From the NCBI GenBank assembly GCA_019057475.1, contig DXJO01000035.1, positions 1-14,942 of the forward strand: a DNA stretch of 14,942 bases. The letters run 5' to 3'. The number at the start of each line of letters is the position of its first letter. Position 1 is the stretch's first letter. Positions 1 to 14,942 of this stretch are shown here, in pieces. The position numbers were made by a program, and so were the translations under genes. The notes beneath the pieces were generated by a model. The model was not told the origin of the DNA. It saw only the letters and a list, made by a program, of their open reading frames with translations, and did not search any database. This DNA is from Candidatus Thorarchaeota archaeon. GTDB lineage: Archaea; Asgardarchaeota; Thorarchaeia; Thorarchaeales; Thorarchaeaceae.

Positions 1-101
1 GTTCCTGATTCATTGAGGTCCGCTCTGCAGATCCTGCTGAATCTGCGACTAGTTTCACGTCCTCTCCACAGGCGTTTTCTGTTTCCGTCCAACTGGCGGC
101 G
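1..101 (-). ncRNA. IS607/IS605 TnpB omegaRNA (right-end RNA)-like structured element, copy 1; 3' end and guide cut off by the window edge; no tnpB upstream
   Basis: Minus strand reads CCGCCAGTTGGACGG...AAAACGCCTGTGGAGAGGACGT...GCAGATTC-AGCA-GGATCTGC...ACCTCAATGAATCAGGAAC. It is collinear with 14792-14891 (17/19, 24/28 and 15/21 identities in three blocks). The GCCTGTGGAG...GAA(G/T)CAGGAA pattern is typical of tnpB 3'-end RNAs (recalled). Confidence 0.7.
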
Positions 102-166
102 ACCAAATTACATGGAGGCTCTAGCAATCAGCATTGAACATCCACACCACTCAATCCTGAGCATAT

Positions 167-174
167 GTTATAAC
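167..174. promoter_or_regulatory. Palindromic TATA-like box GTTATAAC; could drive the copy-1 RNA (minus, start about 143) and/or lipS1 (plus)
   Basis: TTATAA core in the divergent intergenic region; archaeal TATA-to-start spacing is about 24 nt. Confidence 0.4.
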
Positions 175-284
175 CACCTACAAAATGTCTAAGATTGTAC
201 AAGTTCTTGGCAGCTGTTGCTTGCCCTTAGGCCCCATCATAATCCTAATAGCGGGTGCCTTGCAGTCTGACTAGAGGTTGAACA

Positions 285-9801: not shown

Positions 9802-10290
9802 GTGGCAGGGAAAAAGAAGAATGAAACGATTAGAATCGTCAAGATAACAGACGGGACAGTAATTGATCACATAAGCGCTGGTCATGCTCTTGAGGTTTTG
9901 GAGATATTGGGAATTACCGGGAAGGAGGGCAGCGTTGTTACACTCGCCATGAACATCAGTAGCTCCAAAGTTGGAAGAAAGGATATCGTCAAGCTAGAGA
10001 AGCGTGTCTTAGAGCAGTCTGAGCTGGCCAAGATTGCATTGGTAGCTCCTGACGCAACAATCAATATCATACAGGACGGAGAAGTTGTCAAGAAGACAAG
10101 AGTGGAACTCCCCGATAGCATAACGAACGTAGTTGCGTGCCCCAACAAGAGGTGTGTCACCAACAAGGAGCGGGAGCCCATACATGCCAAGTATCAAGTA
10201 GTGTCAAAGCGTCCGACAGTGCTCAAATGTCAATATTGTTGGACCTTGATTGAAGAGGCCGATATAATAGCTCAGTTCATGGAACACTGA
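9802..10290 (+). CDS. pyrI: Aspartate carbamoyltransferase regulatory chain
   Basis: GTVIDHISAG, KDIVKLE, Zn ligands CPNKRC and CQYC. Start reassigned to GTG 9802 (GGTGG upstream). Confidence 0.95.
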   Translation: MAGKKKNETIRIVKITDGTVIDHISAGHALEVLEILGITGKEGSVVTLAMNISSSKVGRKDIVKLEKRVLEQSELAKIALVAPDATINIIQDGEVVKKTRVELPDSITNVVACPNKRCVTNKEREPIHAKYQVVSKRPTVLKCQYCWTLIEEADIIAQFMEH

Positions 10291-10407
10291 AGGTGTAAGT
10301 GACATTTTCCACAGCATTTTCCCTTGCATACTGGAACAGATGCTTTGCAAACGCTTTTTAGCGAAATTTCAGCAGACAGCTCGAACCACGACTGCTGAGT
10401 GAATCTC

Positions 10408-10731
10408 ATGGTTAGCGATAAGATTGCTGTAATAGGTGATAGGGACACTGTCACCGGTCTTCGAATGGTGGGAGCCACCCAACATTTCATGCCCAAGTCT
10501 CCCGAGGAAACTCGCAGTAAGCTGCTTGAGTACTTCAGAGACCCAAAGATGGGGCTGATTATCATAACTGAGCCCCTTGCCAAAATGGTTGAAGACACGA
10601 TCCTTGAACTCTCAGAAGCTCCTGTACCAGTGATTCTATTGATACCGGATAGATACGGGCCAACTGGCGAGTATGAAACGATATTGAAGGAGCTTATACG
10701 CAGAGCGGTTGGCATTGAGATTAAAATATAG
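10408..10731 (+). CDS. atpF: A/V-type ATP synthase subunit F
   Basis: KIAVIGDRDTVTGLRMVG, GLIIITE, LIRRAVGIEI. Confidence 0.93.
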   Translation: MVSDKIAVIGDRDTVTGLRMVGATQHFMPKSPEETRSKLLEYFRDPKMGLIIITEPLAKMVEDTILELSEAPVPVILLIPDRYGPTGEYETILKELIRRAVGIEIKI

Positions 10732-10756
10732 CACAGTGATTCCAGAGGAGCTAGCA

Positions 10757-12565
10757 ATGAAGCCTGACATCGGATATATCGAGAACATCGCAGGGCCTGT
10801 CATCAAGGCGAGTGGCCTCCCCTCGGTTCGCATGTATGAAGTAGTTCGAGTGGGCAAAGAGCAGCTCATCGGCGAAGTGATTGAAGTAGGAGAACATTTC
10901 TGCATTATCCAGTGCTATGAAGAAACATCAGGCATAGCTCCTGGGGAACCAGTTGCTGCAACTGGGGATACACTATCAGTGGAACTCGGCCCCGGCTTGC
11001 TTGGGGCCATTTATGATGGCATACAAAGACCCCTGCCAGAGTTGAAAGAAATTTCAGGCGATTTCATCTCAAGGGGACTCACAGTCGAGGGTCTTGATAA
11101 GGAGAAGAAGTGGAGCTTCACTCCTACGGTTAAGGTTGGCGCGAATGTTATTTCCGGGGATATAATCGGCGAGGTTCCAGAAACTGGAATAATCACTTCC
11201 AAGATCATGATCCCCCAAGGTATAGAGGGGGAGATAGTCGAGATTGTTGCGAAGGGAGAGTACACAGTAATTGAAACAATCTGCAAAGTCAAAGACAAGC
11301 GTGATACAGTTCTTGAAGTCATGATGATGCAGAAGACACCCGTACGTGTAGGACGCGCCTTCAAAGAACGAGTTGCGTTCGATACCCCCCTTCTCACCGG
11401 GCAGCGAGTAATCGATACTTTCATGCCTCAAGCAAAAGGCGGCACAGGAGGGATTCCTGGGGGATTCGGAACTGGCAAGACTGTCACTCTGCATCAATTT
11501 GCGAAATGGGCCGATGCCCAAGTCGTTGTCTATGTTGGTTGCGGCGAGCGCGGCAATGAGATGACCGAGGCTCTTGAGGAATGGCCTAAATTGAACGACC
11601 CTCAGAGTGGAAAGCCTCTGATGGATCGCACAGTCCTTATCGCGAATACATCCAACATGCCTGTTGCTGCTCGAGAGGCGTCAATTTACGTTGGCGTAAC
11701 CATTGCTGAGTACTTTAGGGACCAGGGTTTTGATGTTGCACTCATGGCTGACTCCACTTCACGGTGGGCTGAAGCACTCCGCGAGATATCTGGTCGTCTG
11801 GGCCAGCTACCATCAGAAGAAGGCTATCCTGCCTATCTTGGGTCGAGGCTTGCACAGTTCTACGAGCGTGGTGGTAGAGTCAAGCCCCTTGGTTCCGATG
11901 ATCGGCTTGGATCGATCACAATCTGTGGTGCTGTGTCACCACCTGGCGGCGACTTCTCAGAACCGGTTACTCAGGCCACACTCAGAATTGTCAAGGTATT
12001 CTGGGCTCTGGACAAAGACCTCGCTGCTCGGCGCTTCTTCCCAGCAATCAACGTGCTGACTAGCTATTCTCTCTATCACATTACACTCGAGAAATGGCAC
12101 AAGGAAAACCTGGGTCCTGACTGGCCAGAGGTAGTGAGGGATTCCTTGGCACTGCTCCAAAAGGATCAAGAGCTGAGGGAGATTGTGCAACTTGTGGGGC
12201 CTGATGCACTACCCGAATCTGAACGAGCGGTCCTTGAAGCGGCTCGGATGATTAAGGAGGATTTCCTAACCCAAAGCGCCCTACATGAGATAGACACCTA
12301 TTGCCCCATAGGGAAGACTTACCGGATGCTGCGTACGATCATGAAGTTCTCCAAACAAATGGCGGCTGCAGTAAAGCTGGGTGTGAGTGTAAGGCGGATT
12401 CTGGAGTTCAGTGTTCTCGATAATATCGCCCGAATGAAGACTCTACCTTGGGACTCCTATGAAGGAGCAATTGACGCCATAGAAGACAAGATTGATCGGG
12501 AGTTCCAGTCGCTATTCACAGAACCTGATGGTTCTGGAGTGTTAATGCCCGGCGTCGTAGAGTGA
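10757..12565 (+). CDS. atpA: A/V-type ATP synthase subunit A
   Basis: IAGPVI, Walker [33 protein letters not shown]; no intein. Start ATG 10757 after GAGGAG. Confidence 0.98.
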   Translation: MKPDIGYIENIAGPVIKASGLPSVRMYEVVRVGKEQLIGEVIEVGEHFCIIQCYEETSGIAPGEPVAATGDTLSVELGPGLLGAIYDGIQRPLPELKEISGDFISRGLTVEGLDKEKKWSFTPTVKVGANVISGDIIGEVPETGIITSKIMIPQGIEGEIVEIVAKGEYTVIETICKVKDKRDTVLEVMMMQKTPVRVGRAFKERVAFDTPLLTGQRVIDTFMPQAKGGTGGIPGGFGTGKTVTLHQFAKWADAQVVVYVGCGERGNEMTEALEEWPKLNDPQSGKPLMDRTVLIANTSNMPVAAREASIYVGVTIAEYFRDQGFDVALMADSTSRWAEALREISGRLGQLPSEEGYPAYLGSRLAQFYERGGRVKPLGSDDRLGSITICGAVSPPGGDFSEPVTQATLRIVKVFWALDKDLAARRFFPAINVLTSYSLYHITLEKWHKENLGPDWPEVVRDSLALLQKDQELREIVQLVGPDALPESERAVLEAARMIKEDFLTQSALHEIDTYCPIGKTYRMLRTIMKFSKQMAAAVKLGVSVRRILEFSVLDNIARMKTLPWDSYEGAIDAIEDKIDREFQSLFTEPDGSGVLMPGVVE

Positions 12566-12715
12566 AACGAGTCTTCAGCAGTTTACTAGCAAGTGTACTG
12601 GCGTTTATCATCAGGGAGCACATTAAAATTGTGAGATGAATTGGGTAGAGATATTGAGAGGTCTGTCTTTAGTGGTGAATATATTCCAATATTGCGACGC
12701 ACACCCGTGAGGTCC

Positions 12716-13228
12716 ATGGATCCATCCAATACAGCTTACCATGTGCTCCAACAACCCATGTTTGACGGGCCATTCGCATCTTGGTCGGACTTCATCAGCT
12801 TTGTATTGAATATCACGTTCGCCCTCTCGATTCGTGGATACTTGATTTTCGTGCTTATCGGACTCATGATATACATGACCGGACTCAGCGATGGTCTGAG
12901 CAAGACACTGGTTATCATAGGAATTGCATTGTATCTACTAAGCCCTTTCATCTTGGGTATCCTTGTGGAAGTGGCTGGTGTGATCCCAATCACTCTGGAG
13001 AGCGCAACTTACGCTTGGATAAGCTTGGTCGGCATAGCTGACAACGAGCTGATTGCACTCCTTGTTTTCTTGGGAGATGCATTAATGGCCCTCTGCATAT
13101 TGATTGGAGCCATCTTGTACTTCACCCCTACATCAAACGACCTTACGGCAAGAGGGCAGTCACTGATAGTTCGAGCCTTGATATTTGCTCCAGTCCTTGT
13201 GTTCTTTCATTTGTCGCCATGGCTCTGA
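12716..13228 (+). CDS. Membrane protein with two tandem TrbC/VirB2 pilin-like helical hairpins, inserted between atpA and atpB
   Basis: Two similar repeats: IFVLIGLMIYMTGLSDGLSKTLVIIGIALYLLSPFI and LCILIGAILYFTPTSNDLTARGQSLIVRALIFAPVL. Start uncertain (12641 TTG, 12716 or 12758 ATG). Confidence 0.6.
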   Translation: MDPSNTAYHVLQQPMFDGPFASWSDFISFVLNITFALSIRGYLIFVLIGLMIYMTGLSDGLSKTLVIIGIALYLLSPFILGILVEVAGVIPITLESATYAWISLVGIADNELIALLVFLGDALMALCILIGAILYFTPTSNDLTARGQSLIVRALIFAPVLVFFHLSPWL

Positions 13229-13319
13229 AGAAATGTGACTTGTAGTACGTAACTCTTAAAACATCACATCTTCTACGAGCTTCAAACGGGTTATTTGACC
13301 TCCGTTGGTGCTTCCTCCG

Positions 13320-14720
13320 ATGACAAAGGAGTCTTCAATTGTCTACCGCACGGTTTCAGAGGTACGTGGTCCTCTCCTAATTGTGAAACACACACACAAC
13401 GTCGGATACAACGAGGTAGTCAAGATTAGATCTCCAAGCGGAGAGATGCTGACAGGGACCGTCCTTGAAACTGGTCGTGGAAAGGCAATCATCCAAGTGT
13501 TCGAAGGAACCCGAGGTCTTGATACAGATAAGACTGCCGTACGATTCACCGGTGACACATTGAAACTACCGGTTTCAACGGAAATTCTTGGGCGTGTTTT
13601 GGATGGCTCTGGAAACCCTCTGGACAAAGGCCCGCCGCTCACGGCTCAGGACCACAGGGACATCAACGGTTCCCCAATCAATCCATATGCGAGACAATAC
13701 CCCCGGCAACCGATTCAGACTGGATTGTCAGTCATTGATGGACTCAACACTCTAGTCAGGGGTCAAAAGCTTCCCATTTTCTCTGGCTCTGGCTTACCAC
13801 ACAACCGGATTGCAGCACAGATTGTTAGACAGGCCGAGATTCCTGGGGAAAAGAGCGATTTTGCCATTGTATTCGCAGCAATGGGCATCACAGCGACTGA
13901 GGCACAGTTCTTCATGAATTCCTTTGAGGAAACTGGTGCACTCGAGCATACCGCACTCTTCCTCAATCTCGCAAATGACCCTGCGATTGAGCGAATAATA
14001 ACGCCACGTGCAGCACTGACTGCAGCAGAACATCTGGCATATGAGGCGGATTTGCACGTTCTCGTGATTCTTACGGATATGACTAACTACGCGGAAGCTC
14101 TTCGCGAGATTAGCGCAGCAAGGTCTGAGGTTCCTGGCAGGCGTGGTTACCCTGGTTATCTCTATACGGATCTTAGCATGATTTACGAGAGAGCCGGAAG
14201 GATTAGGGGCAGAAAAGGGACAGTCACTCAGATGCCAATTCTCTCAATGCCACAGGATGACATGACTCATCCAATCCCCGACCTTAGCGGGTACATCACT
14301 GAAGGACAAATGATTGTTGCCCGTGATCTTCATAGACGCGGCATCTATCCGCCAATTGATCCGGGTCCATCATTGAGCCGCCTGATGAAGGAAGGCATTG
14401 GCAAGGGTATGACACGCTTTGATCATAAGGAGCTTCAAGCACAGCTCTACTATGGATACTCTGAAGGAAGGGATTTCCGAGACCTCGTTGCAGTAGTAGG
14501 CTCTGAGGCTCTCACAGACCGAGATCAGAAGTACCTTGCATTCGCAGACAGGTTCGAGCAAGAGTTCATCAATCAAGGTGATCACGAGAATCGATCCTTT
14601 GAGGAAACCCTTGACCTTGGATGGGACCTTCTGAGTGAATTTTCCGAGAGGGAACTGAAGAGATGCGATACCAAGACGATAGATTGGGCGCGGGAGCGGG
14701 GCGTATACGCTCCCTCGTAA
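13320..14720 (+). CDS. atpB: A/V-type ATP synthase subunit B
   Basis: [52 protein letters not shown]. Confidence 0.98.
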
Positions 14721-14893
14721 ATCTCTGTGATTGCTAGCCGTTACCCGAAACCTCGACAATCCTAGACATCAAGGTCCTGAACTGATGTTCGGTTCCTGCT
14801 TCATCGAGGTTGCTTTTTGTTAATTCCGAAGAATTAACTGGAAGTCTTACGTCCTCTCCACGGGCATTTTACGTCCCCGGCCAACTGACGGTA
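14721..14893 (-). ncRNA. IS607-type TnpB omegaRNA-like element, copy 2: complete scaffold 14893-14738 plus putative guide 14737-14721; no tnpB C-terminus in the 49 nt visible upstream
   Basis: Minus strand: TACCGTCAGTTGGCCGG...AATGCCCGTGGAGAGGACGT...GTTAATTC-TTCG-GAATTAAC...CCTCGATGAAGCAGGAACCGAACATCA...TGATGT...GGTAACGG then CTAGCAATCACAGAGAT. 5' CCGT can pair with the terminal ACGG; it ends in GG like IS607 ends; the cUUCGg tetraloop supports the minus strand. Confidence 0.75.
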
Positions 14894-14942
14894 GAGTCAT
14901 CCTTGGACTTGGTTCTCGTCCTGGACTGACACTACATGTACA

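Follow-up and report, generated by a model that had tools for sequence, protein, structure and literature searches.

Two related intergenic repeats lie at the two ends of a Thorarchaeota contig, and they raise the question of whether they encode guide RNAs for a TnpB encoded elsewhere and, if so, whether such guides serve the host or the elements themselves. The window, that is the whole stretch of DNA analysed (14,942 nt), is the entire contig C15 of a 3.3-Mb genome labelled G000. Positions 1-99 and 14792-14891 aligned collinearly with 69 identities over ~100 nt, and this pair was the longest direct repeat of the window (49 nt, 80%; E value of 3.6e-5 in a BLAST search of the pair against the genome). 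An earlier note on this DNA had described diverged collinear copies, both on the minus strand and both intergenic, and this was borne out, as were its two 8-bp hairpins, the UUCG loop and the GAGG/CCTC pairing. Since the copies sit at opposite ends of a whole contig, each was truncated by the assembly. Copy 1 continued onto contig C34 through a 100-nt overlap with 2 mismatches, and copy 2 onto contig C2, the final 30 nt of which are identical to the window end. Both joins were backed by empty sites in relatives and gave elements of 279 bp (copy 1) and 311 bp (copy 2), whose features are listed in Table 1. An intact tnpB just past position 14942 was ruled out because C2 supplies the left end of copy 2 ~106 bp further on.

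Table 1. Features of the two elements in window coordinates; G000 contigs are named where a feature continues outside the window.
Feature	Position	Strand	Remarks
Copy 1, TAM and GG crossover core AAGGG	224..228	-	Left boundary is the GG at 225-224
Copy 1, 6-nt tract equal to the first 6 nt of its own guide	218..223	-	Candidate repair scar of a TnpB cut (proposed mechanism)
Copy 1, left-end body with subterminal motifs mirrored at the right end	174..217	-	Left ends match the right-end query on the opposite strand
Copy 1, TATA-like box, former tnpB promoter	166..173	-	Same box in tnpB-bearing copies
Copy 1, first tnpB codons and ~1.05-kb deletion junction	113..134	-	Common to family-A mini-elements; alignment to full element
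Copy 1, omega-RNA scaffold, 5' part	1..103	-	P1 103-81; RAGATH-18-like core 72-2; remainder (~54 nt) and guide at G000:C34:69146-69199 and below
Copy 2, predicted 20-nt guide, flanking host DNA	14718..14737	-	Antisense into the atpB stop codon; guide length borrowed from ISFba1
Copy 2, right end with terminal stem, 3' strand of predicted pseudoknot and AACGG end	14738..14792	-	
Copy 2, RAGATH-18-like core with variable hairpin	14793..14864	-	Rfam 25.3 bits, E 0.51; covariation
Copy 2, hairpin P1 with invariant AGUU loop	14873..14892	-	
Copy 2, 5' leader hairpin P0 with 9-nt loop (consensus RAGARCCAA)	14891..14935	-	Found only on protein-less cassettes
Copy 2, end of promoter spacer	14936..14942	-	Continues on C2: TATA at C2:15009, left end at C2:14926

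A family of non-autonomous IS607 elements

The earlier note had counted two members. BLAST and a covariance model together recovered 39 pieces, corresponding to about 30 elements in the genome. The majority belong to family A, the copy 1 type, several members of which are 1.34 kb long and carry a 404-aa TnpB; family B, the copy 2 type, has five elements and the related type C one. A full-length family-A element (C18:13644-14981) aligned with window positions 228-113 and 117-1, and a single deletion, common to the short A copies, has joined the start codons of tnpB directly to its last ~45. Copy 1 retains the first codons (MLIARA) and an open C-terminal frame, CNLVAASW...SMNQE, from position 112 to 2, and is thus a deleted tnpB element. 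The statement that no TnpB C-terminus precedes the copies therefore held for copy 1 as regards the CxxC and DRDxNA motifs, which are absent, but not as regards this residual coding sequence.

Elements start with GG and almost all end in AACGG. At 57 independent sites the four bases ending in the left GG were AGGG (40) or GGGG (8), and the commonest TAM 5-mer was GAGGG (19/57), a TAM known for some IS607 TnpBs (PMC11061315). The crossover lies at the GG core: the closest empty sites hold a single GG at the joint, and there was no regular target duplication. The left boundary of copy 1 was set from an alignment of ~25 left ends, the single GG of the empty sites and the RGGG consensus of the 57 sites. 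For copy 2, homology among all copies stops at position 14738, empty sites connect atpB directly to the C2 flank, and the guide DNA sits behind an RGGG-like motif in some of them. Copy number varied from 0 to 38 among 61 genomes of the host's taxonomic family, related RNAs were present in 29 of 121 genomes of the phylum, and 2 of 30 insertions lay deep within open frames. The earlier note had proposed examining the synteny of the loci and their 3' guides; both loci were empty in five congeneric genomes, and a few sites were shared between species. With GG crossovers, filled and empty alleles, variable copy number and an IS607-type cognate TnpB, the copies are non-autonomous IS607 elements. This is the alternative that the earlier note had called less exciting, and the matching left ends and polymorphic positions it associated with simple MITEs are indeed present; the elements do not look inert, however. 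Membership of IS200/IS605 or of its PATEs was ruled out, as no Y1 transposase (PF01797) was matched in G000, which is 96% complete.

Element interiors are not uniform. Chimeric copies combine a family-B left half with a family-A hairpin, and since interiors are exchanged between copies, sequence could persist without selection. Scaffold-less remnants also occur, mostly as single copies. In the genome G004, two of them (L141 and L142, 65 and 44 bp) consist of nothing but the left and right tips. L138 and L139 have the final ~50 nt of the right end in common; their interior differs, includes a separate TATA-like box and may be a cassette for some other RNA. The same guide was seen at two right ends in G000 (C53:1-91 and C34:41-319), probably an assembly duplication or overlap. 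Elements L244 (G070:C373) and L122 (G005:C154), from different genera, share a guide and a 98% identical flank, which likely reflects a misbinned contig. The right flank of the copy 1 guide (G000:C34:68190-69145) is another repeat, with relatives on C18, C21, C42 and C54. Beside copy 2, the A-type ATPase genes at window positions 10272-14720 are fragmentary: probable atpF, atpA, a 195-aa membrane ORF without an NCBIfam match, and atpB. They are preceded by pyrI, and no atpD follows them within the window.

RNA scaffold, leader hairpin and predicted promoters

RAGATH-18 (RF03064) was the sole Rfam match to the scaffold, over the full model length but at 25-27 bits against a gathering threshold of 44.9; the scaffold is RAGATH-18-like and below the threshold for family membership. 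Copy 1 scored 27 bits and was also matched by our covariance model, R1. The scaffold closes at the transposon right end and is followed by a variable flanking guide. Its 32-pair structure was 94% paired over 28 diverse copies, and 16 of the 32 pairs change on both sides, a count reached in 0 of 500 shuffles and at most 8 in slid controls; these counts overstate significance, given the relatedness of the sequences and the fact that the structure itself was built from them. The P1 loop is predicted to form a pseudoknot with the bases immediately ahead of the guide, with a single covarying pair in its support. These results support the claims that the RNA structure covaries and that the copies are IS607/TnpB-type omega-RNA scaffolds without a protein of their own. 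From P1 onward, the scaffold is kept in four families of cassette (A, B/C, D and the G014 type) whose origins differ. In the CboIStron, CboTnpA requires just 60 bp of right end (10.1101/2023.11.20.567912), and by that analogy retention of the whole scaffold would count in favour of a working RNA. Private mutations were not significantly rarer in the scaffold than in the leader (family A, p=0.33; family B, p=0.77). In their sequences, the elements still look like working RNA genes. Copy 2 and three other copies in G000 have lost the outer 5' arm of P1 through a 6-nt deletion, and copy 2 may be impaired by this loss.

Upstream of P1, copy 2 carries a further 45-nt hairpin, P0 (fold z -3.4). The P0 stems covary around a conserved 9-nt loop, with 20 double-change cells against 0 of 500 shuffles, the pair count by itself being non-significant. 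A P0 model matched 91 sites in 15 genomes of five genera, all within the host's family; none was found outside it among the 121 phylum genomes searched, nor any match in Rfam. In a pattern scan of metagenomes 42 loci fitted the model, and 41 of them adjoin a scaffold with the pairing kept. P0 was absent from every tnpA- or tnpB-bearing locus tested, which speaks against its being a 5' UTR of either gene. Most likely, P0 is a stability or processing cap. The earlier note had assigned a TATA box and a 5' hairpin to copy 1; the box stands, and the covarying hairpin belongs to copy 2 (14738-14942), the TATA of which is on C2.

In archaeal promoters the spacing from the TATA box sets the start of transcription. 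A TATA box lies 26-29 nt ahead of P0, while its distance from the left end varies from ~70 to 115 nt; given the archaeal geometry, the predicted transcription start coincides with the first base of P0 or lies close to it. Types D and G014 have no P0 and carry a TATA-like box 28-30 nt before P1, a position occupied by coding sequence in tnpB-linked copies. The box is thus at a fixed distance in three cassette types and missing there in tnpB-linked copies. Since the tnpB copies tested lack both P0 and this spacing, gene conversion from them cannot maintain the two features. From the TATA-like box of copy 1, a transcript would start ~40 nt ahead of the scaffold. A GAAC motif ~12 nt before P0 is conserved amid a variable spacer (C2:15009-15040 in copy 2). 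In other Asgard families, three loci (L296, L300 and L302) have no adjacent tnpB tail and a TATA-like box ~30 nt before P1; promoter-bearing ghosts may therefore occur phylum-wide.

Candidate partner proteins and putative left-end scars

The 404-aa TnpB is intact in at least three G000 elements, with a complete RuvC D-E-D triad and two CxxC motifs (zinc finger). It passed the guided_TnpB profile and scored 342.8 with IS607_TnpB, just below the cut-off of 350. Among solved structures its nearest relatives were the ISDra2 and ISFba1 TnpBs, with a far lower score for the Fanzor2 chain 9b0l. To judge from these residues, the cognate nuclease looks active. The earlier note had offered a dead, TldR-like TnpB or a Fanzor as partners: the intact triad contradicts the former, as do the transposon ends and the lack of a conserved guide with a host promoter target, and the structural matches lend no support to the latter. 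Use in trans of a TnpB encoded elsewhere, which it had also proposed, is the best reading. No intact cognate TnpA was found in G000, where the nearest has two frameshifts and another is degenerate. The congener G005 has an intact 216-aa TnpA homologue with similar left-end motifs, and G012, of another genus, has a complete element with both tnpA and tnpB and a matching right end, its TnpB 67% identical and its TnpA scoring 173 bits with NF033518 (cut-off 110).

In G000 there are several times as many protein-less cassettes as tnpB copies; in G014 the ratio is about 15 to 1, with about 15 cassettes and one close tnpB. A close TnpB was not detected in the cassette-bearing genomes G050, G062 and G006, and the best TnpB in G044 and G035 was just 38-39% identical (assemblies 81-90% complete). 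About ten further TnpB-like ORFs of 110-770 aa occur in G000, and no R1-type RNA was found beside them. Long TnpB-like frames with IS607-like ends of their own lie at C42:187607, C53:9035, C54:173640, C39:69437, C9:22325, C18:47630, C42:35620 and C54:74875 (up to 570-770 aa; one of 300 aa). By motif matching, four long frames apparently have G at the RuvC-II glutamate (IGRL/IGKL/LGRL) and may therefore be rearranged or dead nucleases. The locus L197 (G000:C53:600-9500) is an IS607-like element of ~8.6 kb beside rpl37ae, with a frameshifted tnpA and a 766-aa TnpB frame at its ends and cargo between.

Directly after the left GG, 11 of 139 elements carry a 6-21-nt tract equal to the start of their own guide, compared to 0.7 expected from shuffled guides. 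The tracts fall at 10 sites, nine of them protein-less and copy 1 among them; its tract departs from the left-end family consensus at two bases. When just the first base is considered, the guide base is present at 9 of the 13 left ends that deviate (p about 0.001). The longest tract is 21 nt; the cuts of ISFba1 TnpB lie 16 and 22 nt away from the TAM (PMC11061315). At right ends, the mirror-image pattern was seen in a single 8-nt case and nothing longer, in a control that is imperfect because detection favours intact right ends. Several junctions can be read as lying within short stretches of microhomology to the left end. One site is occupied by a different leader-type cassette in each of two genomes, with a scar in only one of them. 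At another site, which bears a 20-21-nt tract, the mismatches in the tract differ between two genomes, as expected if they allow escape from self-targeting (a single case each). We infer that an empty allele was cut within guide-matching DNA and repaired from a filled copy, the TAM-side end being incompletely trimmed. Artefacts of transposase or recombination could instead account for these patterns, the one-base matches especially, and a scar could be older than the loss of tnpB at its site.

Explanations for the protein-less elements

We consider it probable (about 0.75) that these are 'ghost' IS607 elements that promote their own retention by providing guides in trans. Insertion and excision at the GG core behind RGGG would be carried out in trans by an IS607 serine transposase. 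From an internal archaeal TATA promoter, an omega-RNA of ~160-205 nt with ~20 nt of flanking guide would be transcribed and would load the apparently active 404-aa TnpB of tnpB-only sister elements. By extension from IS607 experiments and from the scars, the complex would then cut the element's own site in alleles that lack the insertion, and the filled copy would template repair; the filled site would be spared because the guide there follows AACGG rather than RGGG. Copy 1 would have arisen simply by deletion, with the tnpB promoter kept in use for the RNA; copy 2 would belong to an older RNA-only lineage, present in five genera, which has a promoter placed where the RNA begins and a 5' hairpin of its own. 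More tentatively, the leader-type cassettes could be old, self-sufficient RNA-only parasites of TnpB, in which the P0 loop is bound by TnpB or by some host protein, allowing the cassettes to outcompete tnpB-linked RNAs or to switch partners across Thorarchaeota genera; the scars would then record homing in trans.

The earlier note's principal suggestion, a domesticated, distributed array of guides loaded into a dead or regulatory TnpB or a Fanzor-like protein for host control or defence, is very unlikely. Dedicated promoters with a dedicated 5' hairpin would suit it, as would insertions that mostly avoid the depths of open frames, the few sites common to different species and the other TnpB-like ORFs, some with G for the RuvC-II glutamate. 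The guides, however, are plain DNA flanking each insertion. For 30 of them one RGGG-flanked 12-nt seed match was found in the host against about 3 expected, and at shared sites guides were no more conserved than flanks (91.8% versus 91.7% identity), which leaves such an array unsupported. The emptiness of both loci in five congeners, the range of copy number across the family and the lack of R1-type RNA beside the other TnpB-like ORFs also weigh against it, and the one leader match on viral contigs failed both models. A 10-nt match of the copy 2 guide to window positions 121-130 has no TAM and was treated as chance.

It is hardly more credible that RNA made from the cassettes binds TnpB but serves chiefly as a decoy, titrating the nuclease, or runs antisense into neighbouring genes, with homing incidental. 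The excess of cassettes over tnpB and the predicted run of the copy 2 transcript into the 3' end of atpB are compatible with this; the left-end scars nevertheless link elements to breaks at their own guide sequence, and positions are not conserved, making a host benefit at any given locus unlikely. Of more weight, though still improbable, is that the elements are inert MITEs moved by TnpA, their RNA unused, with structure surviving from recent amplification and gene conversion by tnpB-bearing copies and the tracts arising from transposase error or ordinary recombination. The non-significant private-mutation test, the chimeric copies, the scaffold-less remnants and the cassette-bearing genomes without a detected close TnpB all agree with it, and CboTnpA accepts altered cores, which could account for the one-base matches. 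Against inertness, conversion cannot sustain P0 and the fixed TATA spacing, both absent from the tested tnpB-linked copies; leader-type RNAs only 67-91% alike still keep their pairing; and a 2-bp recombinase core leaves the 10-21-nt tracts unexplained. Inertness suits family A, and hence copy 1, better than copy 2. Retention through guides supplied in trans remains the preferred reading: the scars suggest that a borrowed TnpB restores elements at vacated sites, which points to selfish elements and not to a host guide array.

Known systems share parts of this picture. The RAGATH-18 reRNA of the ISFba1 IS607 TnpB (PMC11061315) resembles the Thorarchaeota RNA in its core, which is flanked by ~45 nt on the 5' side and 55 nt on the 3' side, and the systems are alike in a G-rich TAM, a ~400-aa TnpB and, in related elements, a serine TnpA. 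The ISFba1 RNA is independent of coding sequence, whereas the Thorarchaeota RNA overlaps the last ~45 tnpB codons, scores far below the family threshold and has an archaeal TATA promoter and an additional 5' hairpin, and most of its copies have no protein. The CboIStron (10.1101/2023.11.20.567912) has a GG core at both ends, an NGGG target and short inverted end motifs, by analogy with which the subterminal motifs of copy 1 are likely TnpA binding sites. Its RNA ends in CGG, so that the filled site is not cut, as would hold for the Thorarchaeota elements, and its omega-RNA works in trans. The Thorarchaeota system thus resembles the CboIStron TnpA/TnpB retention cycle, with the guide presumably coming from protein-less copies; unlike the CboIStron, it has no group I intron, natural protein-less copies dominate, and it has left-end target-derived tracts, of which no description was found in the CboIStron passages searched.

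These loci qualify as ghosts: they have element ends and an RNA and lack an effector gene, which other copies in the genome carry. Like the SpuFz1 Fanzor ghosts (PMC10432273), protein-less copies outnumber protein-bearing ones, with distinct ends and a non-canonical RNA structure; the SpuFz1 ghost RNAs are active with the protein. Those ghosts are eukaryotic, with symmetrical 30-nt inverted repeats and a 75-90-nt RNA, in contrast to the archaeal, IS607-ended, TnpB-associated elements described here. PATEs (10.1101/2023.03.14.532601) are likewise minimal, non-autonomous transposon ends without an ORF, but need a Y1 transposase and DNA hairpin ends in place of IS607-type ends. Standalone omega-RNAs (PMC10691335) are a parallel in being mobilised RNA-only loci with effector loci in the same genome and a reported function in trans; the Thorarchaeota elements differ in forming a specific IS607/Asgard lineage that has a promoter and a 5' domain of its own and scars suggestive of self-retention. 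We found no description of a P0-like hairpin or of left-end target tracts in the literature searched, nor a publication on Thorarchaeota TnpB or non-autonomous Asgard IS607, most subscription journals lying outside that search.

The system reveals no new host immune or regulatory mechanism. The biological role of standalone omega-RNAs has been called unknown (PMC10691335), and one compact TnpB with dozens of protein-less cassettes per genome, known empty alleles and a predicted RGGG TAM offers a direct test of it; the candidate scar could serve as a tally of homing events in whatever genome is examined. A natural 5' hairpin is of practical interest because an added 5' stem-loop improved a Fanzor guide (PMC10432273).
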